From: Escherichia phage vB_ESM-pEJ01
Reading direction: 5' to 3' (one strand)
Sequence record: OP114734.1
DNA length: 64,000 nucleotides
Shown piece by piece: positions 1 to 63,646 of the stretch (position 1 is its first letter; the number at the start of each line of letters is the position of its first letter). The notes beneath the pieces are model-generated. The model did not search any database. It was not told where the DNA came from and saw nothing but the letters and a program-made list of their open reading frames with translations. The position numbers and the translations under genes are program-made.

Positions 1-81
1 TTCTTAGTAAACTGCAAAGAGTGAGTACCGACCGAAAACATTTTCTTTAGTGCTTCACGAGGTGCGATATTATCAATTTGT

Positions 82-4090: not shown

Positions 4091-4117
4091 CACAACAAAG
4101 GCGGGATTTCTCCCGCC
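4091..4117 (-). terminator. rho-independent terminator after ORF 4125..4523
   Basis: hairpin GGCGGGAGAAATCCCGCC followed by T-rich tract on the minus strand. Confidence 0.55.
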
Positions 4118-7634: not shown

Positions 7635-7663
7635 ATTATAGCGGGGATTTCTCCCCGCGTCAA
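7635..7663 (-). promoter_or_regulatory. sigma70-like promoter (TTGACG-17-TATAAT) with hairpin in spacer
   Basis: spacer is the hairpin GCGGGGAGAAATCCCCGC; immediately downstream of nrdA stop. Confidence 0.5.
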
Positions 7664-7671
7664 CACTTATT

Positions 7672-9915
7672 TTACAGCTTGCAAGATGAGCACTCGCTAG
7701 CGTCTTCCGTACCATCAGCACCATCACGCACGTTAGCGTAATACAGGGTTTTCAGACCGTAATATTGAGCAAACAACATATCATCTAACACATCAGCAAT
7801 ATCGACTTTACCAGTCTTATAAGTGCTTGGATCGTATGATGTATTGGAACTAATCGCCTGATCCACAAACTTCTGCATGATCGCTGCCAGTGTGAGATAA
7901 GGCTTGTTACCTTTCTTGATCAGTGTCCAAAGCAGGTCAATAACATCAGCATTATTCTCTACGTTCGGAATAACCTGATTAAATTGCCCTTCTTTCGATC
8001 CTTTAACCGATACAATCCCGCGAGGCGGTTCAATACCGTTTGTGCTGTTAGATACCTGAGAAGACGACTCACAAGGCATCAGCGCCGACAGTGTACTGTT
8101 ACGAATGCCATATTTTTTCAGGTCTTCGCGCAGTTCTTCCCAATCCATCTCATACACCGGATCAACCAGTTCATCTACTGTCTTTTTGTACCAGTCGATA
8201 GGAAGTTCACCGCGACCATAGCGTGTTTCGTGCATCAGTTCGCAAGCACCCTTCTCTTTAGCCAGTCGCACACTAGCCTTAATCAGAGCATATTGCAAGC
8301 GTTCAAACGTTTTATGCGTAAACTCGTTAGCGTCTTCATATGTGAAGAAATTATCTGCTAGATATGATGCAAAGTTAGTAACACCAATACCCAGAGAGCG
8401 ACGTTTTTTGGCTGTCAGAGCTTGTTCTACAGGATAATCCTGATAATCTAACAGGTTGTCAAGTGCACGCACCATAACCATAGCAATGCGTTCTACTTCT
8501 TCCATATTTTCGATATCGAAATTACCTAAAACATATGCTGCCAAAGTACATAGGCTGATCTCTGAATCATCACGCCCCATCGGTTTTGTTGGCAGCGCAA
8601 TTTCACAACACAGGTTAGATTGTTTAATCGGTGCTACATTACGAATAAACGCCCCGTGATTGTTCATGTTGTCTGTGAACGTTGGGTAGATTCGACCTGT
8701 GTTAAAACGTTCAATTGCCACCGCTAAAAACAGGTCTTCGGCTTTAACACGAGTTTTACGAACACTCGGATCTTTTTCCAGTTTTTCGTAAAGCTGGCGG
8801 AAACCTTCCTCATCTCGGAAGTATAGATCCCACAATAAGCCACCCGCAACATCTGGACTAAACAGAGTAATGTAATCCCGTTTAAGGAATCGCTCTACCA
8901 TCAGGTTATTAATCTGTACGCCGTAATCAAGATGACGAATGCGGTTATCTTCCACCCCCTTATTGTTCTTTAACACAATCAGACTTTCAAACTCTAAATG
9001 CCACATTGGGTAATAGAGAGTAGCTGCCCCGCCACGAATACCGCCTTGTGAGCATGACTTAACGGCAGTCTGAAAATGTTTCCAGAATGGGATAACGCCA
9101 GTATGACGAACTTCACCATGCCCGATCTTAGATCCTTCCGCGCGAATCATACCAGCATTGATACCGATACCAGCACGCTTGCTAATATACTTGATGATTG
9201 CATTTGCTGTTTCGTTGATGCCCTGCAATGAGTCATCACTTTCAATCACCACACACGAACTAAATTGGCGTGTTTGGGTACGCACACCTGCCATAATCGG
9301 AGTAGGCAGAGAGATTTGCTTATTCGCAACAGCATTATAAAAATCAATCACATGTTCAAGTCGATTTTCTGTCTCTTCTTGATGCAAGCACATACCGATC
9401 AGCATATACGCAAATTGCGGTGTTTCGATGATTTTCTTAGTGCTGCGATCCTGAACAAGATATTTCTCTTTTAACTGCATCGCACCAGCATAGGTCATTT
9501 TAAAATCAAGTTTATGGTCGATGAATTTCTCCAGATATTCCACTTCTTCACGGGAATATTTTTGCAGAATTTCGCGATCATATTTTCCGGTTGCAATATT
9601 ACGCTCAATATGGCTATAAAAATCAATAGGTTGGAATTGACCGTATACTGATTTACGAAGCGCGAACATTGCAAGGTTACTTGCTACATATTGATAATCA
9701 GGTGTTTCTACAGTAATGTTATCTGCGGCGACCTTAATCAATACTTTCTGGATATCATTGGTAGACATACCTTCTGTCAGAAGTGGTTCAACCATATCAA
9801 ACAATTCATATGGATCAACGTTATGACCTTCGGCTGCCGCTTCCAGAATTTTCATTACTTTTTCTTTTTCAAACGGAACAGTCAGACCGGAAGACTTAAC
9901 AACATTTTTAATCAT
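7672..9915 (-). CDS. nrdA: ribonucleotide reductase alpha subunit
   Basis: 747 aa; class I RNR large subunit with ATP-cone N-terminus; T4 NrdA-like length. Confidence 0.92.
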   Translation of the reverse strand: MIKNVVKSSGLTVPFEKEKVMKILEAAAEGHNVDPYELFDMVEPLLTEGMSTNDIQKVLIKVAADNITVETPDYQYVASNLAMFALRKSVYGQFQPIDFYSHIERNIATGKYDREILQKYSREEVEYLEKFIDHKLDFKMTYAGAMQLKEKYLVQDRSTKKIIETPQFAYMLIGMCLHQEETENRLEHVIDFYNAVANKQISLPTPIMAGVRTQTRQFSSCVVIESDDSLQGINETANAIIKYISKRAGIGINAGMIRAEGSKIGHGEVRHTGVIPFWKHFQTAVKSCSQGGIRGGAATLYYPMWHLEFESLIVLKNNKGVEDNRIRHLDYGVQINNLMVERFLKRDYITLFSPDVAGGLLWDLYFRDEEGFRQLYEKLEKDPSVRKTRVKAEDLFLAVAIERFNTGRIYPTFTDNMNNHGAFIRNVAPIKQSNLCCEIALPTKPMGRDDSEISLCTLAAYVLGNFDIENMEEVERIAMVMVRALDNLLDYQDYPVEQALTAKKRRSLGIGVTNFASYLADNFFTYEDANEFTHKTFERLQYALIKASVRLAKEKGACELMHETRYGRGELPIDWYKKTVDELVDPVYEMDWEELREDLKKYGIRNSTLSALMPCESSSQVSNSTNGIEPPRGIVSVKGSKEGQFNQVIPNVENNADVIDLLWTLIKKGNKPYLTLAAIMQKFVDQAISSNTSYDPSTYKTGKVDIADVLDDMLFAQYYGLKTLYYANVRDGADGTEDASECSSCKL

Positions 9916-9963
9916 ATTACCTCACTTCATATTTTAGTAGGAACAAGTTTTATCCTCCATATT

Positions 9964-9979
9964 GGGGGCTTTCGCCCCC
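9964..9979 (-). other. stable GNRA-loop hairpin GGGGGCGAAAGCCCCC (minus-strand sense) between td and nrdA
   Basis: perfect 6 bp G/C stem with GAAA loop; identical 16-mer occurs in plus-strand sense at 21997..22012. Confidence 0.5.
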
Positions 9980-9985
9980 CTTTGT

Positions 9986-11206
9986 TTATACTGCCATTTG
10001 AGCGGTGATCGCTGGATGGCTTTGATAGTTGTGAATTTTAAAATCTTTCGGAGTCTTTGTCAATACCTCATCTAAAGATTTAAATTCCGGCAACTCAATT
10101 GTTGGTTTATCAAACGGAACACGGCTTAACTGTTCCATAACTTGATCAAAATGGTTTTTGTAAATGTGAGTATCTCCACCAGAGAAAATCAGTTCTCCTA
10201 CCTCAAGATCACACATTTTCGCTATGATGTGAGTTAACAGCGCATAGCTGGCGACGTTAAAGGGCAAGCCCAAAAAGCTGTCTACGCTTCGCTGAAACCA
10301 CATACAAGACAGTTTACCTTCATTGACGTAGAATTGTACGAACGGATGACATACACCCAATACAGCATTATGTGTTCCTTGTACGTTCCATGAGTCAATG
10401 ATGATACGTCGATCCGTTGGATTGTTTTTAATTTGTTCAATCACGTTTTGTAACTGGTCTTCCCAAATCTTCGGGCGATAGACATATTCTTCATCGTCTT
10501 TAGTGCTTGATGTGTCTACGTCCATACTAACAAACATCGTGGTATCCGGTGCTATAATATCCCCACCCAGATAATCACTATCAAGCAGATAACCGAAATA
10601 ACCATCATCTACCCATTCCTGGAATCCCCACAAGCAATATGCATCATTAACAAAATTAGATTGAGTCTTCCAGTGGTCTGCTACCAGAATATAATCAAAC
10701 TCTTCATAACGCATACCACGCCAGATAGCACATAAACGGTCTTCTGTGTCATTGGTTGGCGTAAAGTCTTCTACCCACGGGTGCTTAAATGTATGTGTAT
10801 ATTTGCTCTTAACGCGCTTAATTTTGATTTCACCATGTGGATGAATCGGTTTGCGTCTCCACGCCATACCATACATATTGCCGACATTATAACCATTGAA
10901 TCGCAAGGGATTCTTTTCTTTCATATCAAGACAGTTGCCGCGCCAAATATCAAAGGCTTCCTCGTCAAACTTGCCGCGTGTAATTTCCTGTAAGCGACGG
11001 CGGTCAAGTGATCCCTCCATAAACCATAGCAATTCGCCAATTACAGAGGCTGTAGCCATCTTTTTAGTGGTCAGTAATGGGAAACCCTTGCTTAAATCAA
11101 TTCGCATCTCTGCGCCGAATTTAGAGAGCGTACCTACCCCCGTGCGGTCTTCACGAGGACAGCCATTATCAAGAACATCACGCAATAGTTTCAAATATTC
11201 TTTCAT
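9986..11206 (-). CDS. td: thymidylate synthase with ~115 aa in-frame insertion
   Basis: 406 aa; N- and C-terminal thirds match remembered T4 Td (C-terminus HPAITAQMAV vs T4 HPPIKGKMAV); extra segment between the WR motif and the ...DRRIIIDSWN block. Confidence 0.85.
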   Translation of the reverse strand: MKEYLKLLRDVLDNGCPREDRTGVGTLSKFGAEMRIDLSKGFPLLTTKKMATASVIGELLWFMEGSLDRRRLQEITRGKFDEEAFDIWRGNCLDMKEKNPLRFNGYNVGNMYGMAWRRKPIHPHGEIKIKRVKSKYTHTFKHPWVEDFTPTNDTEDRLCAIWRGMRYEEFDYILVADHWKTQSNFVNDAYCLWGFQEWVDDGYFGYLLDSDYLGGDIIAPDTTMFVSMDVDTSSTKDDEEYVYRPKIWEDQLQNVIEQIKNNPTDRRIIIDSWNVQGTHNAVLGVCHPFVQFYVNEGKLSCMWFQRSVDSFLGLPFNVASYALLTHIIAKMCDLEVGELIFSGGDTHIYKNHFDQVMEQLSRVPFDKPTIELPEFKSLDEVLTKTPKDFKIHNYQSHPAITAQMAV

Positions 11207-11447
11207 CCCACATCACCTTTTTCTTATTGATTGCTTTCTTACGCAGTTTTGCTACTGTCTCGTCAATGTCTATAAAGATAACACCACGGTCGAATATAGT
11301 AGCAGGTCTTGATATATCGCTATTTTCTTGCACAGGAAGCCATGATGCGCTCGCTTCATCATAGAGATATTGTAAACCGTAATAATCTACGGCTACTGCG
11401 TAGTTTTCACTGGTAGCTGACCATAATTGAATAATACCGACTTTCAT
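11178..11447 (-). CDS. hypothetical protein
   Basis: start re-set to MKVGIIQ ATG at 11447, which overlaps the stop of the upstream micro-ORF (TAATG). Confidence 0.45.
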   Translation of the reverse strand: MKVGIIQLWSATSENYAVAVDYYGLQYLYDEASASWLPVQENSDISRPATIFDRGVIFIDIDETVAKLRKKAINKKKVMWDERIFETIA

Positions 11448-11539
11448 TATTGTTCCCGTCCGCAATGTAAACACCGACTACCAGCAAACATCAAAGATTC
11501 ACCACAATGTTTGCACTCATAATCTGTCAGAATTTTCAT
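11447..11539 (-). CDS. zinc-ribbon micro-protein (30 aa, CxxC...CxxC), not in ORF track
   Basis: MKILTDYECKHCGESLMFAGSRCLHCGREQ; SD GAAGG inside the frd 3' end; stop overlaps next gene start. Confidence 0.45.
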   Translation of the reverse strand: MKILTDYECKHCGESLMFAGSRCLHCGREQ

Positions 11540-11540
11540 G

Positions 11541-12122
11541 TTACGCCTTCTTACGTTCTAAAATTTGTTCGCTGATCAGGTAATCATCAAGGAAGTAATT
11601 ATGTTCTTCTTTTGTTGCAAAGTCAAAATATAATTCCTGAATCATTTCCTTAGAGATGCCAACATCATATTCAAACAGATCATTAATTCCTGATCGTTGA
11701 ACATACGTTAACACAATACGGTCCGCAAAGTCAACTGCTTTTTCAATCAGGGAAGGTCCGCCAATAACGCTTACCAAACCTTGCAATTTCTCTATGACTT
11801 CTAATAATTCCTTCAATCCACCATCATTAGTAATCTCGGTATACACATCTGGTTGGTCGCCGTTTTTTGCTTTCGGTGCTGGCTTACTGGTATCGGTGCT
11901 AACAACCACATTCACACGACCTTCCAGTGCTTTAGGGAGACTTTCAAAGGTATTACGTCCCATTACAACCGCCGCAAGATCAACATCTCCCATAGTGCGC
12001 ATTTTAAAGTTTTCCATGTCCTTTTTGATTGGACGTCCCCACGGTAAACCGCCTTTAAAACCAAAAGCCCAATTTTCATCTGACATTTTAGTATCACCAA
12101 TCGCAAATACACATTGAATCAT
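11541..12122 (-). CDS. frd: dihydrofolate reductase
   Basis: 193 aa; DHFR fold motifs (...GLPWGRP...); upstream of td as in T4. Confidence 0.85.
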   Translation of the reverse strand: MIQCVFAIGDTKMSDENWAFGFKGGLPWGRPIKKDMENFKMRTMGDVDLAAVVMGRNTFESLPKALEGRVNVVVSTDTSKPAPKAKNGDQPDVYTEITNDGGLKELLEVIEKLQGLVSVIGGPSLIEKAVDFADRIVLTYVQRSGINDLFEYDVGISKEMIQELYFDFATKEEHNYFLDDYLISEQILERKKA

Positions 12123-12137
12123 AATATAAATCTCCCA

Positions 12138-12467
12138 TCAAATCAGTTTGAAATAGTTTTCGTTTACATTTTCTTCTGTGATTGCTGTCTTAAATTCTTG
12201 ACCGTTATCCGGTGTGATGAAATAACGGTCTGAATAATCACGAAAACGTTTTAAGTGAGATACCCCAACATTAACACCATGTTCCCAAAAACGAAAGGTA
12301 ATCATTTTTGGTTCATATCGATAGTCGCTGGTTAACACAGTACCATCACCGCGACGGGCTTCATAAACCGTAATACATTCACGATTAGCGGCTTTAAGGC
12401 ATTCTTCAATAGTGCCGCACGAGATAATACTTACTTTTTCATCTACGATTTGTTCTACAGTCCACAT
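12138..12467 (-). CDS. hypothetical protein
   Basis: 110 aa from MWTVEQ; promoter 12499..12527 and SD AGAGAGGA upstream; track ORF start at 12527 lies inside the promoter. Confidence 0.5.
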   Translation of the reverse strand: MWTVEQIVDEKVSIISCGTIEECLKAANRECITVYEARRGDGTVLTSDYRYEPKMITFRFWEHGVNVGVSHLKRFRDYSDRYFITPDNGQEFKTAITEENVNENYFKLI

Positions 12468-12498
12468 AATATAATCCTCTCTTTGTTTCGATATGTGC

Positions 12499-12527
12499 AT
12501 TATACTTTGATTCTTACAAACTTGCAA
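12499..12527 (-). promoter_or_regulatory. sigma70-like promoter (TTGCAA-17-TATAAT)
   Basis: canonical spacing; drives ORF 12138..12467. Confidence 0.5.
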
Positions 12528-12937
12528 CCTAATTCTTTTTCAATTTGTTTCTGGCGCTCTATGTCCTGAGTAATTTTGTATTTGTGTTCCGGTTCGTCGA
12601 TTTCATAAGCAACGTTATTAACCGGATCATAACCATCAATTCTATACCCCAATATAGGGTATTGTCGTTTTAATTTTATATTCAAAAGCTGTTCTATTGT
12701 GTCTAGTGCAATCTTTTCGGCAGCTGATAATCCAAAACGTATTCCAAAATATTGTTTCCTCACCGCTTCCGCAAGTTCTTCTGTTAAAATTATTTGCTTC
12801 TGTTTTCTACCATACACATCAAAATATTCACTATAATCATAACACAGACCTGTGTTTCTTGCAACCTTTTTTATGTCTCTAGTTACATGGGCATGACGTT
12901 TATTAAATTCTTTCGCAATATCCAGTGAGCTAATCAT
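12500..12937 (-). CDS. Rha-like regulatory protein with C-terminal nuclease-like segment
   Basis: 145 aa; N-terminus ISSLDIAKEFNKRHAHVTRDIKK resembles phage Rha family; C-terminus GYRIDGY...AYEIDEPEH acidic motif; occupies the T4 frd.1-frd.3 slot. Confidence 0.45.
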   Translation of the reverse strand: MISSLDIAKEFNKRHAHVTRDIKKVARNTGLCYDYSEYFDVYGRKQKQIILTEELAEAVRKQYFGIRFGLSAAEKIALDTIEQLLNIKLKRQYPILGYRIDGYDPVNNVAYEIDEPEHKYKITQDIERQKQIEKELGCKFVRIKV

Positions 12938-12964
12938 TTTATCCTCCGTTGCTTAGATGAGTGT

Positions 12965-12992
12965 ATTATACATTACCACATCATCATGTCAA
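12965..12992 (-). promoter_or_regulatory. sigma70-like promoter (TTGACA-16-TATAAT)
   Basis: upstream of ORF 12500..12937 with SD GGAGG. Confidence 0.45.
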
Positions 12993-13015
12993 CACCTTTT
13001 CATAAAATTTTAGGC

Positions 13016-13044
13016 AATAAAAAAGCCTCCCCTAAGGAAGGCTT
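13016..13044 (-). terminator. rho-independent terminator after gene 32
   Basis: GC-rich imperfect hairpin followed by T-run on the minus strand, just after the gp32 stop. Confidence 0.5.
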
Positions 13045-13053
13045 TAAAATTCA

Positions 13054-14028
13054 TTACATCCCTAACAGAGCGTCAAGATCATCCAGATCAGAAGCGGAGG
13101 AAGTACCGCCACCCAGGTCCAGAGATGCCATCAGGTCATCAGCGGAAGAACTCGACGCTGCGATAGCTGCGGTAGAAACAGACGCGGCGATAGCTGAGGT
13201 AGTGCCAGCATCGAATGCATTCATCTGTGCGTCAAAATCGTCAAGCTGGCTGTTAATCGCTGCCGCAGCACTGGAAGCCGCCGCACCAGCTACCATAGAA
13301 ACGCCCATAGTTTTCTTAAATTTGGTTTCCAGTTCATCGAACGGTTTAAACTGGCTAGGCGCTACAATCTCACCCAGATCAACCATGTTTTCCATCAGAT
13401 ATTTCTGATATGCTTCGTCTTCAATCTTCGGAAGCTGTGATTGCTGCATGAAACGAGAATCATCATAGTTCTGGTGTTTATCAACCTTCTTAGCTTTCAG
13501 GAGGAAGTTAGCACCGGAGAACACACAAGTTACATCTACAGGAACTTCGCCCATATCGGTATTCACGTTCACCATTGCAACGATCTTATCATAAATTTTC
13601 TGACCGAAGCGGAATTTGAATACATTACCTTCATTTTCTGGTGCTTGAGGATCTTTCAGTACCAGAATATTTGCGTAGTAAGAGGCTTTACGCTTAATCA
13701 GTTGCCATTCGGTTTTATCGGTATTGTACAGGTCTTTTTCGTTAATATATTTGCACACAGGGCAAGAATCAAAATCACCGTGGGTGCTTGAGCAGTTTTC
13801 CCAATACCATTTACCATTAACTTTGAAGGAATGGTTTACCAGTTTCACAATCGGCAGACCGTCTTCTGTCTTAGACGGCAGGAAGCGAATCAGGGCTTCA
13901 CCGTTACCTGCTGCATCAGTCTTAATCTTCCACTCTTTCGGATCTTCTTTGGAGAAACCGTTGCCACCTTTCAGTGCGGCCAGTTGAGCTTGCAGTTTGG
14001 AAGAATCTTGACGACGAAACATGTTCAT
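13054..14028 (-). CDS. 32: single-stranded DNA-binding protein gp32
   Basis: 324 aa; GNGEALIRFLPSK, WYWENCSSTHGDFDSCPVC zinc site and acidic Ala/Ser-rich C-tail match remembered T4 gp32. Confidence 0.93.
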   Translation of the reverse strand: MNMFRRQDSSKLQAQLAALKGGNGFSKEDPKEWKIKTDAAGNGEALIRFLPSKTEDGLPIVKLVNHSFKVNGKWYWENCSSTHGDFDSCPVCKYINEKDLYNTDKTEWQLIKRKASYYANILVLKDPQAPENEGNVFKFRFGQKIYDKIVAMVNVNTDMGEVPVDVTCVFSGANFLLKAKKVDKHQNYDDSRFMQQSQLPKIEDEAYQKYLMENMVDLGEIVAPSQFKPFDELETKFKKTMGVSMVAGAAASSAAAAINSQLDDFDAQMNAFDAGTTSAIAASVSTAAIAASSSSADDLMASLDLGGGTSSASDLDDLDALLGM

Positions 14029-14088
14029 AATTATACCTCTTTATACATTAACTATTGATTAATTTACGTTTTATACTATATCAGATAC

Positions 14089-14685
14089 TTAATTGCTTGT
14101 CAATACTTTATCAATTATATCTAACAGTTTTGGCTTTCTATTTTCAAATTCTAACATCTCTTCGGGAGAAATGTCAACTACTTCTGTTTTGTTGAAAAAG
14201 TTTGGGTCTATAGCATCAGCAACAAAGTTTCTCGCAAGTGCTGCCGCTTTCTCATGAACATATATTCCCAAATATATCAACTTCTTTCTTTCGACCTGAA
14301 TATTGGCAACATATTTACCATCTCGTTTATAAAGACTAACACCGATATATTCAGACGATCGACCTTTCTGTTTACCCATATTTCTTGAGTTTTGTTGCTC
14401 GTTCGCATCTCTCAAGTTTTCAATCCGATTATCTGTTATAATTCGGTTAACATGGTCAACGTATTTTGGCATGTATCCATGATGCATAAAGAAAATTATT
14501 CTATGCTCTTTATGATGTTTACCATCGATACACACCAATCTGTATCCATGACTAGGATTAACTCCACCCGCTCTAGATCCGACTTTATGCTTTCGGTTTG
14601 TCGATATCTTGCGAATCAGCTTACCGTTATCATATTTAAAGAGTTCATGACAACGAGCATACAATTCAGGATCATATGTTTTCAC
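14089..14685 (-). mobile_element. freestanding HNH homing endonuclease with AP2-like DNA-binding domain
   Basis: 198 aa; HNH core ...KEHRIIFFMHHGYMPKYVDHVNRIITDNRIENLRDANEQQNSRN followed by YIGVSLYKRDGKYVANIQV AP2-like module; inserted between genes 32 and 59. Confidence 0.8.
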
Positions 14686-15349
14686 CTTTTAACCTCGATA
14701 TTTCTTTACACTCTTTAACTACTTTAACAAATAATGCTCTTGCTTTTGCGGCGTCAATAACAAGTAGTTTCTTGTACGCCTTCATTTTAACACTATAAGT
14801 TTGCCAAATCAAGTCTTTGGCTACCTTGTCGTGTGCGTCGATTATATTTAGAAAGCTATCTAACAACATAAACGACTCAAACGATATAATCCGATTTTGC
14901 AGTAGTTTAAAGATACCGCTAGTTTCGGTTGCGGGATTGTATGTAATTAGCTCTTTAAGAGTAACCCCGCGTTTCTCTGAGAAGTATACCAGACTTTTAA
15001 TGTCATCGTCAAATCGTGTTGCTGCATCGGTTATCTTTCCTATGTATTCCATATAAAAGCCGTATGCGTCAACATCAGTGATTTCACCTACCCATGCATC
15101 GGTATTAGCTACCAGATTGCTTAGGAATAGGAAGTATAATTCTCTTAGATTGTACTTTTCCGCTAATTTTGCGAAATAATACTTATCTCTGCGTTTATTG
15201 AATGCGGCATCAGACAACCGCATCCTCCAATTGTATTTTACGCAATCATAACGCCCGTTCATGTGAGCTTTCATCATGCAATATAACATATACACAGATT
15301 TAGCATTAATTCGCATATCTGGATCTGGAGGAAGACGGTTTCTGATCAT
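14672..15349 (-). CDS. 59: helicase loader gp59
   Basis: 225 aa; KSVYMLYCMMKAHMNGRYDCVKYNW and LVANTDAWVGEI match remembered T4 gp59. Confidence 0.88.
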   Translation of the reverse strand: MIRNRLPPDPDMRINAKSVYMLYCMMKAHMNGRYDCVKYNWRMRLSDAAFNKRRDKYYFAKLAEKYNLRELYFLFLSNLVANTDAWVGEITDVDAYGFYMEYIGKITDAATRFDDDIKSLVYFSEKRGVTLKELITYNPATETSGIFKLLQNRIISFESFMLLDSFLNIIDAHDKVAKDLIWQTYSVKMKAYKKLLVIDAAKARALFVKVVKECKEISRLKGENI

Positions 15350-15358
15350 ACATACCCC

Positions 15359-15628
15359 TTAAATATCGAGAGTGTTTGTCGGTTCGTCGATCACTCCCTT
15401 CCTGAGCGTTCTATTTACTATACATTCTTGTGTGATCTTGTCAATAATGGACACCGGAATATATTTCTGATAGTGACCATATTCGATAGAGTTTTCCTCT
15501 ACAAACTGCGTTGTCGCTTCAAGATAAGTCAATCCATCTTCAACAACCAGTTTTTCGATTGCAAGACCGTTTGCTGTTTTGTTCGCGGCTTTTACCGCAT
15601 GTTCATTAAGCATTGAACACCCGATCAT
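15359..15628 (-). CDS. 33: late transcription co-activator gp33
   Basis: 89 aa; ...TYLEATTQFVEENSI... resembles remembered T4 gp33; position between 59 and dsbA. Confidence 0.55.
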   Translation of the reverse strand: MIGCSMLNEHAVKAANKTANGLAIEKLVVEDGLTYLEATTQFVEENSIEYGHYQKYIPVSIIDKITQECIVNRTLRKGVIDEPTNTLDI

Positions 15629-15881
15629 AGAGTTCTACCGCTTCATCGCGTTCTGCTTCGAAGGTTTCGCGCTGTTGCTGGTGATACAGTTTAAACAGAA
15701 TACCCCACATTTTACCGTCTACGCCCAATTCTTCTTTAGCACGCTGTTTGATCTCTTTGATCTTATCGCCGTATGCTTCTTGAATGGTTTTCTGATCGCT
15801 GGCTTCTTTAATCAGTTGTGCCAGGGTATTTCCGTGCACTGCTTCGTCAAATACTACTTTTTCTTTTTTCTGTTCAGTCAT
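15606..15881 (-). CDS. dsbA: dsDNA-binding protein DsbA
   Basis: 91 aa; FDEAVHG...LIKEASD...ELGVDGKM resembles remembered T4 DsbA; position upstream of rnh. Confidence 0.65.
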   Translation of the reverse strand: MTEQKKEKVVFDEAVHGNTLAQLIKEASDQKTIQEAYGDKIKEIKQRAKEELGVDGKMWGILFKLYHQQQRETFEAERDEAVELYDRVFNA

Positions 15882-15885
15882 AATA

Positions 15886-16482
15886 TTAACCCTCTTTCGT
15901 CATTAATTGAAAACCACGTTCAGCTTTTGAAATTTCGCTAGGACTTAAATCGTCACCCACATATTCTAGCATCATTTCTCGGATAATGTCAAGTGCTTTT
16001 TCATCACCTGATTTTAACTCGAACTTAAGTTCATAGTGAGCATCTCCCATGACTTCGCCGACTTTGCAATAATAGAAAGTGTCTTTGCACATTTCCACTA
16101 TAGCACCCTCAAGGTCAAGTGTCAATGACTTGCGGTATGTCATTACTTGCAATAAAGGAACGATAAGGTCGGAGTTTACGCCTAGACTATCAACATAGTG
16201 ATAGAAATCATCCATTGTTGAAAAAGTAATTTCTTCTCGGTTGAATAGTCCAGATTCACCATCACCTATTTTGACCATGATCAATGATCTATTAACGTCA
16301 AGTCGAGCATAAATTCCTTTTCGACGCAGTGCATGATCTTCGGTATCATAATAAAATTCGTGTTTTAGTGTGTTAGCATGATCTACGATATTGTACCCGT
16401 CATACATTGCTACCCACAAATCACAGATTGTTTCGACGCCAATTTGTGAGTGTGCATAGTATTTTAATTCAAGTTCTTTCAT
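15886..16482 (-). CDS. CYTH-like (triphosphate tunnel metalloenzyme) protein
   Basis: 198 aa; N-terminal ELELK (ExExK), YYDTEDHALRRKGIYARL, HYELKFELK acidic/basic motifs typical of the CYTH fold; no T4 counterpart at this junction. Confidence 0.45.
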   Translation of the reverse strand: MKELELKYYAHSQIGVETICDLWVAMYDGYNIVDHANTLKHEFYYDTEDHALRRKGIYARLDVNRSLIMVKIGDGESGLFNREEITFSTMDDFYHYVDSLGVNSDLIVPLLQVMTYRKSLTLDLEGAIVEMCKDTFYYCKVGEVMGDAHYELKFELKSGDEKALDIIREMMLEYVGDDLSPSEISKAERGFQLMTKEG

Positions 16483-16492
16483 ATGTCAACCC

Positions 16493-17440
16493 TTAGAACT
16501 CACCAATTTTCTGCAACATTTTAACTAACGCATTTGTTACAAAATAGTTATAAATTTTACCGCGTGGTGCTGGTTTAGATTTTTCCCATGACTCCAGAAT
16601 CTGATTCTGAATATCATCTGGGATGTAATCGAAATCAATAAGTTCGCGGTTTTCGTCAAAGCGTCGTGCTTCTTCCTCTGTCATCAAAGACTTTGGATCT
16701 TCGGCATCGAAAATTTGCTCTAACCATTTGGTCGCAATTGGTTTAGCTCGTTCCCCTTCCAGTCGTGAGATAATGAAATCACTACGGCACTTGACAGAAG
16801 CTACACCGTCTTTTGCGTCACCCTTAACACATTTTACCATAAGGTCTTTGTAAGGGCTACCATATTTGCATTTCTTCCATGCTTTCTGTACTGGCGCCCA
16901 CTGTTTCACGTTTTTGTATTTGTGCAACTGTGTGTAGTCACCATCGCCGGAGTTGATCAGCACCTGACGACCTTCTACAGAAAACTTTTTAGTTAACACA
17001 GCGATTATATCATCTGCCTCAACTTTGTCAACCTTAATAACGTGATAAGGCATGTTCTCTTTAAACTCTTCGGTGATCTTATTGATCGCGGCAAAGATCA
17101 TCTCCCAATCACGCGGATCTGCGTCTCGTTTTTCCTTACGGTTGCGTTTATAGTAAGGGGCGATATCACGTCGCCAGTAACCTTTACTTGAATCAAAAGC
17201 AAGTACCGTAATTGGGTATTGTTCTTTGAATTTTGTCATATTATAACGCATGGTGTCAAGGATAAGATGACGGATCATGCCTTCATTAATAGGATCTTCC
17301 GGTTTAAAGGTATGCGAGATAGTAGCAATCATAAGCTGCGACATATCAATCAAATGCACACCTTCCGGTAGTTTATCTTCTGGATCATCGAAGAAATCAT
17401 TAAGTGTAGCGGTAGTTTTTGTAAACGGGTTATACGTCAT
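16493..17440 (-). CDS. rnh: RNase H (FEN-like 5'-3' exonuclease)
   Basis: 315 aa; colinear with remembered T4 RNase H (GYWRRD, YKKNR, HLILD, KGDKKDNVASVK-like, RGKIYNYF...EF end). Confidence 0.9.
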   Translation of the reverse strand: MTYNPFTKTTATLNDFFDDPEDKLPEGVHLIDMSQLMIATISHTFKPEDPINEGMIRHLILDTMRYNMTKFKEQYPITVLAFDSSKGYWRRDIAPYYKRNRKEKRDADPRDWEMIFAAINKITEEFKENMPYHVIKVDKVEADDIIAVLTKKFSVEGRQVLINSGDGDYTQLHKYKNVKQWAPVQKAWKKCKYGSPYKDLMVKCVKGDAKDGVASVKCRSDFIISRLEGERAKPIATKWLEQIFDAEDPKSLMTEEEARRFDENRELIDFDYIPDDIQNQILESWEKSKPAPRGKIYNYFVTNALVKMLQKIGEF

Positions 17441-17442
17441 AA

Positions 17443-17628
17443 TTAAGTTCTCTCCACTCTCACAACAACATATTCGCCAAACGAGTTAGATACTTCACGA
17501 TCATACCCGTACTTCTCCATAACTCGCAGAATTGCATTGTTTAGTTCTGCGCGAAAATAATTATAATCCTTATCAGGGATTCTGTCAACTACCCATTTTG
17601 CACCATCAGACAAATCAAATTTAACCAT
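17443..17628 (-). CDS. hypothetical small protein
   Basis: 61 aa track ORF directly upstream of rnh in the same orientation. Confidence 0.35.
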   Translation of the reverse strand: MVKFDLSDGAKWVVDRIPDKDYNYFRAELNNAILRVMEKYGYDREVSNSFGEYVVVRVERT

Positions 17629-17634
17629 AATATA

Positions 17635-18216
17635 TCATCCTCTTTTTGGAAAATTTAAATAAGCATACTCGCCAACTATTTCATGTGCTGCACGGTCATA
17701 AGCCTTAGCCGCCTCAACTTCTGTCTCAAAGTATCCTAGATGTATATTCTTTCGATTGATAACAATATACGCCTTCCACGGCTTTTTCTTGCTTGGTGAT
17801 AATGATACACCTTTATATTTGCTATGGCAAGCCTTTTTCTTTGAGACGTTAAACTGATTTTGCTGTTCGGTTGCTTCTCTCATGTTTGACGGTCTATTGT
17901 TAGTTTTGTCTTGGTCTATGTGATCTATTCGTTCAACCTGAGTACCATACTCTAAAAACCAGACAACTCTATGTACAAACAGATTAAGTTTATGACCATT
18001 GTTGTAAAATGTAAAGTATAAATATCCTTCTTTATGGAGACATACCCTTACCACATCACCTTTTTTGTATATGGACCCTTCTTTTCGGAATCCAGCAGCT
18101 ACAGAATCCTTTAAATGGTATAATATTCCATCGACATGATAGAATCTACCTTTTATCGCTTTCTGTGTCTCGATATCCCAAAATTTTGTTTTTGCCACAA
18201 CAAACACCTCACACAA
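17635..18216 (-). mobile_element. freestanding HNH-AP2 homing endonuclease
   Basis: 193 aa; VVWFLEYGTQVERIDHIDQDKTNNRPSNMREATEQQN HNH core plus YKGVSLSP...WKAYI AP2-like domain; paralog of 39976..40539. Confidence 0.8.
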
Positions 18217-18222
18217 TAAATA
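18215..18222 (+). promoter_or_regulatory. T4 late-promoter-like element (AATAAATA)
   Basis: 7/8 match to TATAAATA, ~30 nt upstream of gene 34 start. Confidence 0.35.
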
Positions 18223-18250
18223 ATTTCATATTATAACAGGAGACCCAATA

Positions 18251-21200
18251 ATGGCAGATTTTTCTCAACATTTCAAGGCCACCTTTGGCTTTGACGCTGG
18301 TAATGAAAAGGTCGTCAATGTAGCATACGCAGATAAAAACACATCAACGGATGCGGTCAACGTTGAATTTTTCAATTACCATAATGGTATTACTCAGTAT
18401 GACACAACTCGCGGTTATGATCAATACGGAACTACAATCTATCAAAACCGTCCGTATTATGCAAAAGAAGATATCACAAAGCCAGCAGGTGATTTTGACC
18501 CGACTAAATGGCAAGCACTGCGCACGGACCCACGTTGGGATTATGTTGCAGCAACTTCCGGCGATACTCCTTTAAAGTCTGGTGATTATATCGCAGCGGA
18601 CTGTCAGTTTGCAAACTTGACATTCTCAATGCCTACTAATCCGGCAGAGGGAGACACTATAACAGTAAAAGATATCGGTGGCAAGTGTGGTGTTAACGAA
18701 TTATCGTTCTTGAGTACAGGACATGAGTTTTACCATAACGGTAATGTGTACAACCGAAAATGGTATTGCACTACCCCGTATGCAATGAACTATTTCATCT
18801 TTGTTCGTAATCGTTGGCATGTTTATCAGACAGGAACAGAGCCACGCGGTGTGTACGCACAGCCAGCGATTGATGCTATTCAAATGCAGAATGGTGATCA
18901 GGTATTTCGTCGTAGTTCGTTGGGTAATATTACCTTAGTGCTTCCTAAGTTTGCCAACAATGGCGACATGATCCAGACTACAGACCTTGACGGATTAACC
19001 GCAACCAACCACGTTACGGTTAAAGTTCATGAGCACGCAGAAGAACAATCAATTGGCACGTCCGGTCTAAAAGAGATTATCGGTAAGCGTAGCGGTCATG
19101 GTGTATTCATCTTTGACAAGACGGAAAACTTATGGCGTTTGTGGGATGGTGATCAGTCTGTTCGTCTTAAACCGATCATCGATGACACTCGCTTGCAACC
19201 TAATAGCTATGTTGCTGTATTTGGTGATCGTGATGTTACTCTGACGCTGCCGACCAATGTCGAGCCGGGTGATCGTATTCAAGTTTCTATGCAGTATATG
19301 AACGGAAACCAGAATTGCCGTATTATCACCGCCACAGAGGATACAAAAATCCTTATGCAGAAAAACATGGTTCAGTTTCCTAAGCGTAGCGAGTACCCAT
19401 TCAATGGGACCGATACATGGACGGGAGTATCTGAATTGTCTTTCAACGCTGCAAATGATTATGTACCTTATGTGGAGTTCTCTTATTCAGAAGGTGATGA
19501 TGGTAAGAAATACTGGTTGGTGGCACATGCTCACCCGATTGTAGAACGAGTAGATCCGACTCGTAAAGATCGTGTTGGTGTAATTGCACTGGCTACCCAA
19601 ACTGAAACGAATAAAAACCATGAAGAGAATCCTAGCGACGAAGTTGCAGTAACACCAAAAATGCTGGCTAATAAAACCGCCAACGAAACTCGACGCGGTA
19701 TTGCTCGCATTGCGACTCAAGCGGAAACGCATCAAGATACTGGTTCCAACTTCCTGGATGATGTTATCGTTACGCCTAAAAAGTTAAATGACTGTGTTGC
19801 TACCGAAGCCCGTCGTGGTGTGATGGAAATTGCAACCCAGCACGAAACCAATGAAGGTTTAGACGATACCCGCGCTATTACTCCTAAGAAATTAGAAGAA
19901 CGTCGCGCTTCCGAAGATCTCGCTGGTATTGCTGAAATTGTTCAGGCTGGCGGCAGTGCTGCCGCTCGACGTGGCGAAGCTGGTACAGGGATCTATAACA
20001 TCAATGACCATGCTAAAATTGTTACGCCAAAAAACATCAACGAAGTCAAGGCGACCGAAACTTCCCGTGGTGTTGGCTATCTGGCAACTGACGCGGAAGT
20101 GCAAGGGGCTACAGAATCAACCCCGCAAGATGCTTTACTCATCACGACTCGCACGCTAACGAAACGTACTGCTACCGAATCGCGCACTGGTATCGCTGAA
20201 ATTGCAACTCAGGAAGAAACAAACTTAGGTCAAAGTGATAACCATATCATCACGCCTAAAAAGCTGCATACTCGCCGAGCAACGGAAACTTTACACGGTT
20301 TAGCAGAAATTGCAACTCAACCGGAGTTTGACGCAGGTCGTGACGATTCTCGCATTTCTACCCCATTGAAGATTAAAACCTTCTTTGAGAATGCACAGCG
20401 TTTGAAAGTAGATCCGACTCAGGGGCTTAACCTTACTGGTGATTTGTGGCAAGGTATCATGATCAGCGGTCTGGATGCAACCGAAGACACAAAAGGTGTC
20501 GCTAAAGTTGCGACTACTCAGCTTACTGACGCTGGTCAAGATGATACTACAATCATCACGCCTAAAAAGCTGCAAGGCAAGAAGGCCACCGAAGGTAAAG
20601 AAGGCATTATCCGAGTTGGTACTCAAGCCGAAACCGTGGCTGGTATTATGGACAATGTAGCAATTTCTCCGAAGAACTTCAAATATGTTGTTCAGACAGA
20701 GGATACATGGAAAGCAACCGAAGCGCGTCGTGGCTTCTTGAAAGTTGCTACTCAGGAAAACTGTTTTGTTGGTGATAATCTGCAAGGTTCTACTCAAGAA
20801 CTAGGAAACTACCAGCATGACGGAATTGCTGTTACCCCTAAAGGATTAAACTACGCACTTGCTAATTTCTTACCTAAGATGGCAACCGCTCAGAATAGTT
20901 TGAAATTAGGTAACGTAGAGGCCGCTAAATGGGCGCGTAGAGACATTGACCAGACCATAGAGAGCAATTACACGTTTAATAAAAACGTTAACGTGAAGGG
21001 CGATTTAGAGTGCTTAAAATCAGGTTCCTTTGAAACTCTGTCTGTGACTAAGAACTCGACCGATGTTCCGAGTAATGGTCATCTGGTGTTGGGTGAGCGT
21101 GGAGTTGACGGTCACACCGGAATTACTCTGCATGGCACAACCGCATCGGAAGGCATGAAAAACTCTTGGTCTATTATCGTTGGTGGTACTGGAACAGCGC

Positions 21201-21991
21201 AAGTTGTTGATAGTGATGCTATCGCTTTCGGTAAAATCAATGATGGTGGAGTCGTTCAGCATTACGCCTTTGCTATGAAACACAATGGCGATGTGACAGC
21301 ATATAGAGACTTTATTGCAGGTCGTAACCTGTATGCGAAACAAGGCGGGTTATACATTGTTGACCAGTCTAATCCGGCAATGACTCGTTCCCCAGATGGT
21401 ATGCTGAATATCGGTCACGGTGGAAGTGTTAACATCAAGGCAGGTCATCAAACGTTAACTACAGAGATCGCCGGACAGAAATATCAGATCGTACACGCAG
21501 GAAACGCTGACGAAGTTCTTAACCGTCAGTTTGTTAAGAATGCTGGCGATACAATGGTCGGTAAGCTGACTATGGATAATGCGCCTATTGTTTCCGTTAA
21601 GCATGAAGCTAGCGCGGCAACCGCTCCGGCAATCGGTAACATCGGTTTCTGGAATATGCGAGTTACTACCCAGAACATCAAAGAAACTTATCCAGAGAAG
21701 AAAAACGGTACTCTGATGCAATGGGGTACTGACGCGGACGGGCTTACCCAGCTTTGGTCCCCTGATGGTACTCATAAACATTATATCCGTTCCGGTACTG
21801 GTGGTCAATGGACAGCATGGGGTGAAATTTACACCAAACAGAATAAGCCTACCGCTCAGGAAATCGGGGCAGTAGTTGCAGAAGGTGGTTTAATGAACTC
21901 TATGACGGTTCGTGATTGGATCAAAGTTGGTAATGTTAAAATCATCGCCAATAATCTGACTCGTACCGTAGACTTTATCTGGGAAGACTAA
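18251..21991 (+). CDS. 34: long tail fibre proximal subunit gp34
   Basis: 1246 aa; colinear with remembered T4 gp34 including repeated ...ITPKKL...ATE.RRG... motifs and C-terminal ...VDFIWED. Confidence 0.93.
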   Translation: MADFSQHFKATFGFDAGNEKVVNVAYADKNTSTDAVNVEFFNYHNGITQYDTTRGYDQYGTTIYQNRPYYAKEDITKPAGDFDPTKWQALRTDPRWDYVAATSGDTPLKSGDYIAADCQFANLTFSMPTNPAEGDTITVKDIGGKCGVNELSFLSTGHEFYHNGNVYNRKWYCTTPYAMNYFIFVRNRWHVYQTGTEPRGVYAQPAIDAIQMQNGDQVFRRSSLGNITLVLPKFANNGDMIQTTDLDGLTATNHVTVKVHEHAEEQSIGTSGLKEIIGKRSGHGVFIFDKTENLWRLWDGDQSVRLKPIIDDTRLQPNSYVAVFGDRDVTLTLPTNVEPGDRIQVSMQYMNGNQNCRIITATEDTKILMQKNMVQFPKRSEYPFNGTDTWTGVSELSFNAANDYVPYVEFSYSEGDDGKKYWLVAHAHPIVERVDPTRKDRVGVIALATQTETNKNHEENPSDEVAVTPKMLANKTANETRRGIARIATQAETHQDTGSNFLDDVIVTPKKLNDCVATEARRGVMEIATQHETNEGLDDTRAITPKKLEERRASEDLAGIAEIVQAGGSAAARRGEAGTGIYNINDHAKIVTPKNINEVKATETSRGVGYLATDAEVQGATESTPQDALLITTRTLTKRTATESRTGIAEIATQEETNLGQSDNHIITPKKLHTRRATETLHGLAEIATQPEFDAGRDDSRISTPLKIKTFFENAQRLKVDPTQGLNLTGDLWQGIMISGLDATEDTKGVAKVATTQLTDAGQDDTTIITPKKLQGKKATEGKEGIIRVGTQAETVAGIMDNVAISPKNFKYVVQTEDTWKATEARRGFLKVATQENCFVGDNLQGSTQELGNYQHDGIAVTPKGLNYALANFLPKMATAQNSLKLGNVEAAKWARRDIDQTIESNYTFNKNVNVKGDLECLKSGSFETLSVTKNSTDVPSNGHLVLGERGVDGHTGITLHGTTASEGMKNSWSIIVGGTGTAQVVDSDAIAFGKINDGGVVQHYAFAMKHNGDVTAYRDFIAGRNLYAKQGGLYIVDQSNPAMTRSPDGMLNIGHGGSVNIKAGHQTLTTEIAGQKYQIVHAGNADEVLNRQFVKNAGDTMVGKLTMDNAPIVSVKHEASAATAPAIGNIGFWNMRVTTQNIKETYPEKKNGTLMQWGTDADGLTQLWSPDGTHKHYIRSGTGGQWTAWGEIYTKQNKPTAQEIGAVVAEGGLMNSMTVRDWIKVGNVKIIANNLTRTVDFIWED

Positions 21992-21996
21992 TTAAA

Positions 21997-22012
21997 GGGG
22001 GCGAAAGCCCCC
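21997..22012 (+). other. stable GNRA-loop hairpin GGGGGCGAAAGCCCCC between genes 34 and 35
   Basis: same 16-mer as 9964..9979 but in the opposite genomic orientation; no following T-run. Confidence 0.5.
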
Positions 22013-22024
22013 TATGGGGTTATT

Positions 22025-23174: not shown

Positions 23175-23206
23175 AAGCCGATCCATGTGGTCGGCTTTAT
23201 TTTTAT
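23175..23206 (+). terminator. rho-independent terminator after gene 35
   Basis: hairpin AAGCCGA...TCGGCTT followed by TATTTTTAT. Confidence 0.6.
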
Positions 23207-39366: not shown

Positions 39367-39535
39367 TTTGATTCTCCTTTGTTACTAGATAACGAATTTG
39401 GTCTTGCATTGCGATCAGTTCCCAGCGTGCTACTTTCATCATGGAAACCGACTCTTTGAACATAATATTAGCCTTTTCCTTATTCCCTGTCAAGTAGATT
39501 TCTGCAATTTTCACAAAATTTTTGAGTTTCTTCAT
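39359..39535 (-). CDS. possible small ORF (58 aa), not in ORF track
   Basis: ATG at 39535; stop overlaps start of 39172..39366; weak SD, so uncertain. Confidence 0.25.
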   Translation of the reverse strand: MKKLKNFVKIAEIYLTGNKEKANIMFKESVSMMKVARWELIAMQDQIRYLVTKENQNA

Positions 39536-39581
39536 TCTTAAACGGTTTCATATAAGTCAACCTTTTGTTTTCGATGGGGAC

Positions 39582-40539: not shown

Positions 40540-40540
40540 A

Positions 40541-51915: not shown

Positions 51916-51956
51916 AATATAATCCTCTCAGTCAAAATATCATTTTACTACTTTAA

Positions 51957-63617: not shown

Positions 63618-63646
63618 AGTATAACGGGGATTTCTCCCCGCGTCAA
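63618..63646 (-). promoter_or_regulatory. sigma70-like promoter (TTGACG-17-TATACT) with hairpin in spacer
   Basis: spacer hairpin CGGGGAGAAATCCCCG, same family as 7641..7658. Confidence 0.45.

Follow-up and report, generated by a model that had tools for sequence, protein, structure and literature searches.

What is the role of a very stable hairpin that occurs in two identical copies, one on each strand, at junctions between core genes of a T4-type phage? The stretch of 64,000 nucleotides analysed here (the window) comes from a Krischvirus, an RB49-like phage, and contains the exact 16-mer GGGGGCGAAAGCCCCC at two sites, 9964-9979 on the minus strand and 21997-22012 on the plus strand. No further copy was found in the window, even with up to two mismatches, whereas 0.01 matches are expected by chance and none of 100 shuffles contained two copies. 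A sequence-only reading of this DNA had described an identical 16-nt GNRA hairpin, present once per strand and 12 kb apart, placed in sense after td (minus strand) and after gene 34 (plus strand). The 16-mer search bears out the first statement, and gene placement from the ORF map plus the RB49 annotation bears out the second.

At both copies the loop is GAAA when read in the mRNA sense of the local genes, and it sits on a C-G closing pair and a 6-bp all-G/C stem, as in GNRA tetraloop hairpins. Folding of the isolated hairpin gives -13.3 kcal/mol in sense and -12.4 kcal/mol in antisense. Rfam covariance models matched neither hairpin at E up to 1. Like an intrinsic terminator, each copy is a GC-rich hairpin just past a stop codon and downstream of a gene; unlike one, it has no U-tract in sense, where the tails AAUAUGGAG and AUGGGGUUA hold 2 T (copy 1) and 3 T (copy 2) in the 9 nt 3' of the stem, so the absence of a clean sense U-run noted by the earlier reading holds. 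The terminator scan of the window lists neither copy in sense and both in antisense, as a hairpin followed by a T-rich tail on the opposite strand. For copy 1 this tail, CTTTGTTTAT, is a clear T-run. For copy 2 it is borderline: the scan entry has TTTA folded into the stem, and the tail directly after the 7-bp stem is TTAATTAG.

Our analysis indicates that the hairpins are ordinary members of the intergenic stem-loop repertoire known from this phage group, whose elements shape mRNA and mark where gene cassettes join, and not a special paired element. With about even confidence, we propose that they are independent instances of one generic sense-RNA device, a promoter-less form of the PeSL (promoter-early stem-loop) element that would attenuate transcription or protect 3' ends.

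Table 1. Positions of the two hairpin copies, their neighbouring signals and related hairpins in the window
Feature	Position	Strand	Remarks
Hairpin copy 1, GGGGGC-GAAA-GCCCCC	9964..9979	-	Starts 6 nt past td stop, ends 48 nt before nrdA ATG
GGAGGATAAAA, RegB/S1 consensus match	9948..9958	-	11/11 to GGAGRAYARAA; 5 nt 3' of copy 1
Mini-ORF TTG...TAA, nine sense codons	9917..9946	-	Between GGAGG and nrdA Shine-Dalgarno sequence
Sigma-70-like promoter TTGACA-17-TAAAAT	10035..10063	-	11/12 consensus match; inside td 3' end
Hairpin copy 2, same 16-mer plus extra A-U pair	21996..22013	+	16-mer at 21997-22012, starts 5 nt past gene 34 stop
Predicted alternative pairing, 3' arm GCCCCC with gene 35 SD GGGGUU	22007..22021	+	-8.7 kcal/mol
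Late promoter core TATAAATA	18017..18024	+	Upstream of gene 34
Canonical hairpin plus T-run terminator	23175..23197	+	After gene 35; closes 34-35 late transcription unit
Related hairpin GCGGGGA-GAAA-TCCCCGC	7641..7658	-	Within TTGACG-17-TATAAT; PeSL (7635-7663) just downstream of nrdA
Related hairpin GGCGGGA-GAAA-TCCCGCC	4100..4117	-	Followed by TTTGTTGTG; canonical sense terminator after denA
Related hairpin CGGGGA-GAAA-TCCCCG	63625..63640	-	Inside TTGACG...TATACT; PeSL (63620-63646)

The td/nrdA junction

Copy 1 lies between the td stop codon (9986-9988) and the nrdA ATG (9915-9913), and a perfect match to the RegB/S1 target consensus (PMC1702504, PMC3014915) follows it. Two such matches are present in the 64 kb, compared to 0.39 expected. 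RB49 and most relatives have a 10/11 site (GGAGGATAAAC) instead of the 11/11 site in the window; RB49 encodes regB, a gene that lies outside the window here, and RegB is active in that phage (PMC1702504, PMC3014915). The site following copy 1 (GGAGGAUAAAA, 11/11) resembles the processing sites of T4-type early mRNAs (Durand et al., 2006; PMC1702504) in its early intergenic location and its 'SD of very small ORFs' class. It differs in that only copy 1 has one, the RegB site as defined does not include the hairpin, and cleavage is only predicted. Its position next to copy 1 predicts an mRNA processing point, although in the MFE fold part of GGAGG is weakly paired with downstream sequence, which could reduce RegB access.

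GGAGGATAAAA also resembles an orphan Shine-Dalgarno sequence. The nine-codon mini-ORF may be left over from a cassette gene that has disappeared. If the sigma-70-like promoter in the 3' end of td is active, copy 1 would be located about 50 nt into the nrdA leader. A late-promoter-like sequence, TATAAACA, overlaps the td stop codon and was taken as a coincidence.

The gene 34/35 junction

Copy 2 is flanked by the stop codon of gene 34 (21989-21991) and the ATG of gene 35 (22025), and the gene 35 SD (GGGG, 22016-22019) begins 3 nt past it. The next exact late core on the plus strand after the one upstream of gene 34 is at 23326, and none occurs between the gene 34 start and gene 35, even with one mismatch. 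Copy 2 is inside a 34-35 late operon without a separate late promoter for gene 35 and must be read through. Judged from this arrangement, with no such promoter for gene 35 and a canonical terminator behind it, efficient termination at copy 2 is excluded.

In T4 and five other genera, genes 34 and 35 are adjacent or overlapping (gap ≤8 nt), which implies co-transcription, and the hairpin is absent there. Since those other T4-type genera manage without it, the 34/35 hairpin is not essential to tail-fibre expression. Copy 2 resembles a lineage-specific insert of ~24 nt between stop and SD, compared to TAAGAGGTATTATG in T4, CHI14 and Cronus. The 3' arm of copy 2 is also predicted to pair with the gene 35 SD (Table 1); in this model, the SD-sequestering structure would form only with the 5' arm unavailable.

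Distribution and variation among phages

Both copies are found in essentially all 58 sequenced Krischvirus members, with copy 2 in 58 of 58 records and no indel at that site. Copy 1 is conserved across the genus, and its variation is confined to the length of polyG/polyC, some of which may be sequencing error; the stem is kept despite these changes. Base-pair covariation was not observed within the genus, where the sequence is too conserved. Homologous hairpins in T4 or other genera were considered for a covariation test, but none are present, the junctions being too short (gaps of 8 and 20 nt in T4).

Insertion or replacement of ORFs is seen at copy 1 and, in the 58 genomes, not at copy 2. 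In Makalu-type phages, copy 1 gives way to another GNRA hairpin, GCGGGGA-GGAA-TCCCCGC, whose distance from the td stop is unchanged, and the replacement begins exactly at the hairpin. A 100-aa ORF takes the place of the mini-ORF region at the td/nrdA joint in Makalu, E26, SSG23 and LF73P4. Phage 011D4 carries a foreign DNA-methylase cassette with TAA(A)CAAAGGGGG(G)CGAAAGCCCCCA on both flanks. The search for a donor of this cassette found none, the DNA being unique to 011D4; the closest proteins to the methylase are 64-69% identical and come from Xanthomonas, Vibrio and Pseudoalteromonas phages and from IMG/VR contigs. For the engineering of RB49-like therapeutic phages, the td/nrdA joint is a natural landing pad where additional genes are tolerated.

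The exact 16-mer is not peculiar to this genome: unrelated viral contigs (IMG/VR) contain it in at least 120 stretches. Given this recurrence in phages that are not related, the identity of the two copies is plausibly convergent. A 32-nt query consisting of the hairpin and its td-side flanks gave short blastn matches in 403 GenBank phage records, counted at E up to 10. Relatives of td in IMG/VR were limited to 2 loci.

Relation to known stem-loops

The PeSL polyG/polyC stem-loops of RB49 and phi1 are terminators or attenuators as well as recombination joints (PMC2839356), and PeSL cassettes have been described in these and other T4-like phages (Arbiol et al., 2010, PMC2839356; Comeau et al., 2014, PMC4122927). 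The two copies resemble them in genus, in being polyG/polyC stem-loops between a stop and the next SD and, for copy 1, in marking where ORFs have been inserted or replaced. In RB49, the PeSL211/210 stem-loop was reported to lower the expression of a downstream lacZ as much as rrnB T1 does (PMC2839356), and we found its sequence to have no U-run, like the two copies. On this precedent, partial termination at the hairpins is likely. The earlier proposal that the copies are stability or processing elements rather than terminators is therefore half upheld: the lack of a sense U-tract and the need to read through copy 2 support it, and the perfect RegB/S1 consensus after copy 1 fits its first part, while PeSL211/210 leaves 'rather than terminators' unestablished.

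However, neither copy overlaps or directly neighbours a sigma-70 promoter; the closest -10 ends 55 nt upstream of copy 1, and none is near copy 2. With the promoter missing at both, we rejected strict PeSL membership. The copies also occupy core-gene junctions (td/nrdA, 34/35), whereas PeSLs are found in hyperplastic ORFan regions, and copy 2 belongs to a late operon of the opposite strand. The hairpin-ORF-hairpin arrangement in 011D4 is the expected product of integration of a one-hairpin mini-circle, as in the published PeSL model (PMC2839356). We see here a modest extension of the PeSL idea, in which a promoter-less stem-loop is found repeatedly between core genes and can also sit on either side of an acquired gene; the two hairpins open no long-standing question.

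A wider hairpin population provides context for the GAAA loop. Among the intergenic GC-rich perfect tetraloop hairpins of RB49, 12/14 have a GNRA/UNCG loop (GNRA or UUCG) in sense and 0/14 in antisense (binomial P about 1e-14), compared to 1/10 with such a sense loop among coding hairpins. This intergenic, sense-only bias implies that selection acts on the sense RNA. Extra-stable C(UUCG)G and GNRA tetraloop hairpins were reportedly noted in T4 intercistronic regions by Tuerk and colleagues in 1988. The two copies share with those the short GC stem and a special tetraloop in mRNA sense between cistrons, and the sense-only bias is likewise seen in the RB49 genome, but in T4 both homologous junctions are free of hairpins. 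A division into UUCG terminators and GNRA non-terminators was dropped, as an energy-based scan contains several GAAA-loop hairpins with T-runs.

Intercistronic stem-loops also stabilise mRNA in polycistronic operons, as with REP in malE-malF, puf and pap. Copy 2 is similar in being a stable hairpin 3' of the higher-demand cistron (gp34) within a single transcription unit. It differs in that the two hairpins are not clustered repeats, and differential mRNA decay is only presumed here.

Alternative explanations

Efficient factor-independent termination in sense, ending the td and gene 34 transcripts, would agree with the 'terminator' annotation given by ARNOLD and other pipelines in the G37-3, G2248, TB34 and Makalu records, with the lacZ effect of the U-run-less PeSL stem-loop, and with the T-run that follows the identical 16-mer in about half of the unrelated IMG/VR instances (59/121 among the matches listed). 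We nevertheless consider it unlikely, given the missing sense U-tract, the need of gene 35 for transcription through copy 2 as far as its own terminator, and the fusion of genes 34 and 35 into one unit in other genera. Automatic annotation of these hairpins as terminators should be avoided in RB49-like therapeutic phages. Termination might instead act on antisense transcription running against td/nrdA or the tail-fibre genes. The top terminator-like site of the scan is GGGGGCTTTCGCCCCC plus CTTTGTTTAT (plus strand, 9964), copy 2 is scanned on the minus strand as well (tail TTTAATTAG), and the Makalu_001 annotation has its terminator on the antisense strand; upstream A-counts are 7/9 and 5/9, and antisense transcription is documented in T4 genes 32 and 34 (oriG). 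This reading strikes us as quite unlikely, however, because the antisense loop is an unremarkable UUUC in a hairpin population whose GNRA/UNCG loops occur only in sense. The A-rich 5' flank is mostly the TAA stop codon and an AT-rich linker, and 27/121 unrelated instances, among the matches listed, have such a flank anyway. Promoters that could feed antisense transcripts are limited to weak 9-10/12 sigma-70 matches, and the strands concerned carry no late core.

The events at copy 1 raise the possibility of a purely DNA-level role, with the hairpins serving as short linkers for recombination, or being what is left of a small GC-rich insert that spreads, and having no function in RNA. The duplicated hairpins around the 011D4 methylase cassette, the start of the Makalu-type replacement at the hairpin, the insert-like appearance of copy 2 and the published mini-circle model (PMC2839356) are all consistent with it. 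We give it a small chance, since a DNA-only role would not be expected to produce the strong sense-strand GNRA/UNCG bias, copy 2 has no indel throughout the 58 genomes, and strong hairpins are only modestly enriched at breakpoints between the window and RB49 (4/17 versus 30/400, the breakpoints being imprecise). That the copies are paired inverted repeats which invert or rearrange the enclosed 12 kb is suggested by their geometry only, and we find it scarcely credible. Gene order was colinear in every Krischvirus genome checked, for which reason a paired-repeat function was rejected, and the junctions lie on the same record strand about 10-12.5 kb apart in 12/12 cross-checked genomes. The shared identity is only 16-19 nt, and an inversion would shift early genes to the late strand. 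The block itself, said earlier to run from rnh to nrdA, was misassigned: the copies enclose td, frd, 32, 59, 33, dsbA, rnh and gene 34, and nrdA (7672-9915) is outside.

Proposed function

Taken together, we favour the sense-RNA device, in which a very stable, GNRA-capped G/C hairpin between the stop codon and the next ribosome-binding site would act in the sense transcript. The hairpin would fold in the nascent RNA and, having no U-tract, halt only part of the RNA polymerases. Where the RNA is terminated or cleaved nearby, it would block 3'-to-5' exonucleases. The mRNA of the upstream cistron (td or gene 34) would then be more abundant or longer-lived than that of the downstream one (nrdA or gene 35). 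We infer both attenuation and 3' protection, because transcript-end, half-life and read-through data for Krischvirus were not found in the literature.

At 34/35, unequal mRNA would suit a 3:1 demand for trimeric gp34 over monomeric gp35 (PMC5537660). At td/nrdA, a RegB/S1 cut 5 nt downstream would leave a hairpin-capped td-terminal fragment. Counting against the unequal-dosage model, there is no obvious reason why the products of td and nrdA should be needed in different amounts.

A more elaborate variant would make the promoter-less motif 'AAAG-hairpin-(A)TATGG(A)GG' a spreading cassette joint at Krischvirus core-gene junctions, which captures foreign genes such as the 011D4 methylase, and would add a two-state translational device at 34/35. 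In that device, a ribosome terminating on gene 34 would cover the 5' arm, and the freed C-run would pair with the gene 35 SD, keeping gp35 synthesis below that of gp34. We see only a slim prospect for this combination. For the simpler sense-RNA device, the motif of ~25 nt would, as a by-product, offer short homology for the insertion or exchange of gene cassettes.

Two copies of a conserved hairpin

The window is matched at 97-99% identity by the RB49-like coliphages (Krischvirus, Straboviridae), and its genes were mapped by synteny with the RefSeq RB49 record. Our search shows that the 16-nt hairpin GGGGGCGAAAGCCCCC, a real and conserved feature, occurs in the window only between td and nrdA (copy 1) and between genes 34 and 35 (copy 2), even with two mismatches tolerated, against a chance expectation of 0.01 hits in shuffles. 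This confirms the sequence-only reading, which had seen one copy per strand. That reading had also proposed a genome-wide search, and in the complete RB49 genome exact matches are found at the same two junctions with no third site; a near copy, AGGGGCGAAAGCCCCT, lies directly past the gene 30 stop. In both copies the mRNA-sense loop is GAAA, and the isolated hairpin folds at -13.3 kcal/mol.

Coordinates of the hairpins and associated features (window numbering unless stated)
Feature	Position	Strand	Context
Copy 1	9964-9979	-	begins 6 nt past td stop, ends 48 nt ahead of nrdA ATG
Copy 2	21997-22012	+	begins 5 nt past gene 34 stop, ends 12 nt ahead of gene 35 ATG
RegB/S1 match 1	9948-9958	-	downstream of copy 1
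RegB/S1 match 2	12937-12947	-	Shine-Dalgarno sequence (SD) of 145-aa ORF 12500-12937
Textbook PeSL	hairpin 7641-7658 in 7635-7663	-	GAAA G/C hairpin fills TTGACG-17-TATAAT spacer
Textbook PeSL	hairpin 63625-63640 in 63620-63646	-	GAAA G/C hairpin between TTGACG and TATACT
Canonical hairpin-plus-U-run terminator	4100-4117		after denA
Canonical hairpin-plus-U-run terminator	13022-13045		after gene 32
Canonical terminator	23175-23197		3' of gene 35
U-run-less G/C hairpins, late structural genes	RB49 record 82845-82862, 88876-88896, 89423-89441	+	after gp13, gp18, gp19
nrdB, nrdA, td, frd, 32, 59, 33, dsbA, rnh		-	synteny with RB49
Tail-fibre genes 34-37		+	synteny with RB49

Selection on the sense RNA

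A survey of RB49, using the annotation of its record, found 26 perfect GC-rich tetraloop hairpins, 14 of them intergenic. Twelve of the 14 have a GNRA (8) or UUCG (4) loop in the sense of the local gene and none has one in antisense (binomial P ~1e-14), and such a loop is present in 1 of 10 coding hairpins (Fisher P = 0.0005). Because these loops are sense-only among the intergenic hairpins, they are direct evidence of selection on the sense RNA. For copies 1 and 2 themselves, a function in the RNA is almost certain.

The population contains three kinds: canonical hairpin-plus-U-run terminators, hairpins embedded in strong sigma-70 promoters and hairpins between late genes that lack a U-run. 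Hairpins of the last kind, placed within operons after genes for abundant structural proteins, may be common to Krischvirus as a whole. The promoter-embedded hairpins are the published PeSL (promoter-early stem-loop) cassettes of RB49 and phi1, whose polyG/polyC stem-loops were assigned two roles, one as terminators or attenuators and one as joints for recombination (PMC2839356); PeSL211/210, the sole stem-loop tested in that work, has a sequence without a U-run. Copies 1 and 2, which gave no Rfam match, are promoter-less members of a described class, either PeSL-type stem-loops or T4-type intercistronic tetraloop hairpins. They could act by stopping part of the transcription, by protecting 3' ends or in both ways, and we give even chances to an attenuator or 3'-cap model that includes RegB coupling at copy 1.

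As a pair the hairpins are not very special. Unrelated IMG/VR contigs contain the exact 16-mer in at least 120 stretches, and a 32-nt blastn query (hairpin plus td-side flanks) hit 403 GenBank phage records with short matches at E values up to 10, those of cyanophages and Pseudomonas phages among them. Among the matches listed, the 16-mer in unrelated contigs is usually 3' of a stop codon and is followed by a T-run in 59 of 121 instances, with an A-rich 5' flank alone in 15 and neither in 47. Since it is seen in unrelated phage contigs, the 16-mer appears to be a recurrent, convergent 'ideal' hairpin. Beyond it, copies 1 and 2 have in common AAA upstream and TATGG...GG downstream and nothing more; they may share an ancestor but need not.

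Within RB49 gene 49 (record 39535-39550), GGGGGCAAATGCCCCC differs from the 16-mer by 2 mismatches and is flanked by a T-run at either end. An internal regulatory hairpin is known in T4 gene 49.

Copy 2 and the gene 34/35 junction

Exact late-promoter cores, TATAAATA, occur in the 64-kb window at 18017 and 23326 (plus strand) and nowhere else; even with one mismatch tolerated, the stretch from the start of gene 34 to gene 35 contains none. Genes 34 and 35 are separated by at most 8 nt or overlap in T4, CHI14 (Serratia), Cronus (Erwinia), KP15 (Klebsiella), TG1 (Yersinia) and PM2 (Proteus). Because no late promoter precedes gene 35, the terminator lies 3' of it and the two genes abut elsewhere, the layout implies that one transcription unit must contain copy 2 and that essential gp35 requires read-through. 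The junction TAAGAGGTATTATG of T4, CHI14 and Cronus aligns to Krischvirus TAA[...hairpin...]GGGGTTATTATG, which gives copy 2 the look of an insert of ~24 nt, specific to this lineage, that separates the stop from the SD. It is present in 58 of 58 Krischvirus records, varying in G/C run length alone.

A partial attenuator or 3'-protective hairpin past gene 34 would tip the balance from gp35 towards gp34, a bias that would match the fibre composition of a gp34 trimer and a gp35 monomer (PMC5537660). More speculatively, the C-run of the 3' arm is predicted to pair with the gene 35 SD (-8.7 kcal/mol) if the 5' arm is occupied. In Shigella phage Sf20 (1-1560 of the retrieved sequence), the gene 34 annotation stops ~450 nt short of the hairpin; its excess of ~330 nt over the window lies within gene 34, away from the hairpin, and is probably an internal duplication or a frameshift in the record.

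Copy 1, RegB and cassette exchange

Five nt past the copy 1 stem, GGAGGATAAAA matches the RegB/S1 early-mRNA cleavage consensus GGAGRAYARAA (PMC1702504, PMC3014915) at 11 of 11 positions; most relatives have GGAGGATAAAC (10/11). The window contains two perfect matches versus 0.39 expected, both reading GGAGGATAAAA; shortly before the second come the gene 32 terminator and, at 12965-12992, an early promoter. RB49 encodes regB, and in vivo activity is reported for its product (PMC3014915). If RegB cut at GG^AG, the td-terminal RNA would end with the hairpin and 7 further nt, plausibly a 3' cap against exonucleases.

A mini-ORF (9917-9946, minus strand; TTG FLLKYEVR TAA, nine sense codons) follows an orphan GGAGG and stops 1 nt ahead of the nrdA ATG, reminiscent of the RegB class 'SD of very small ORFs'. 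TATAAACA (9983-9990, minus strand), immediately 5' of copy 1, overlaps the td stop and is 1 mismatch from the late core; transcript starts would fall within the hairpin if it were active, and the resemblance is probably coincidence.

Copy 1 marks a hot spot of genome plasticity. The td/nrdA match is split in two, spanning ~280 nt beyond the query, in E26, Makalu_001-003, SSG23, SFHK24 and LF73P4 (hit table). In Makalu_001, the one phage among these whose sequence was read there (1228-1568 of the retrieved sequence), TAAACAAA is followed by a different GNRA hairpin, GCGGGGA-GGAA-TCCCCGC, and a 100-aa ORF, of which the mini-ORF may be a deletion remnant. The td-proximal hairpin of Makalu_001 is 17/18 identical to the window PeSL hairpin downstream of nrdA.

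In 011D4 (MT478991.1; 1250-2110 of the retrieved sequence), a frameshifted foreign DNA-methylase cassette of ~800 nt lies between td and nrdA, homologous to window position ~9940-9990. Both edges carry TAA(A)CAAAGGGGG(G)CGAAAGCCCCCA as direct repeats of the hairpin and CAAAG flank. This hairpin-cassette-hairpin layout is the one to expect from integration of a circular 'ORF plus one hairpin' molecule through a crossover in the hairpin, in the manner of the PeSL mini-circle model. A search for the methylase donor found none, the nearest protein relatives, in Xanthomonas, Vibrio and Pseudoalteromonas phages, being only 64-69% identical. KFS-EC, phiS and ELT4 differ in G and C run lengths at copy 1 and keep a stem.

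Other readings of the hairpins

The sense tails hold just 2-3 U per 9 nt at both copies, in agreement with the earlier statement that neither has a clean U-run, and we consider efficient termination in the sense direction unlikely. Antisense termination is another reading. Each copy has a T-rich tail in antisense; a consensus scan puts copy 1, read on the plus strand, first among its terminator-like sites, and one GenBank record annotates an antisense terminator at that junction. However, the special-loop bias is confined to sense, the A-rich 5' flank is mostly a TAA stop plus linker, and no credible promoter was found feeding either antisense direction, so we regard this reading as more doubtful still.

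The sequence-only reading also had the copies bracket an rnh-to-nrdA block as inverted repeats; that block does not hold as described, with nrdA outside the interval and gene 34 inside. Both junctions lie on the same record strand, ~10-12.5 kb apart, in 12 of 12 Krischvirus genomes cross-checked between two hit tables; we regard a paired inverted-repeat function as refuted, with no inversion in any of the 12 and shared identity below 20 nt. A role of the hairpins in DNA only is rated slightly lower than antisense termination.

Gene-sized replacements or insertions relative to RB49 occupy window 12505-12936, 14027-14680, 17646-18216, 39979-40569 and 51929-52717. One example, a 198-aa ORF, separates genes 32 and 59, much as segG does in T4. 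A strong hairpin lies within 50 nt of 4 of the 17 window-versus-RB49 breakpoints, compared with 7.5% of random positions.
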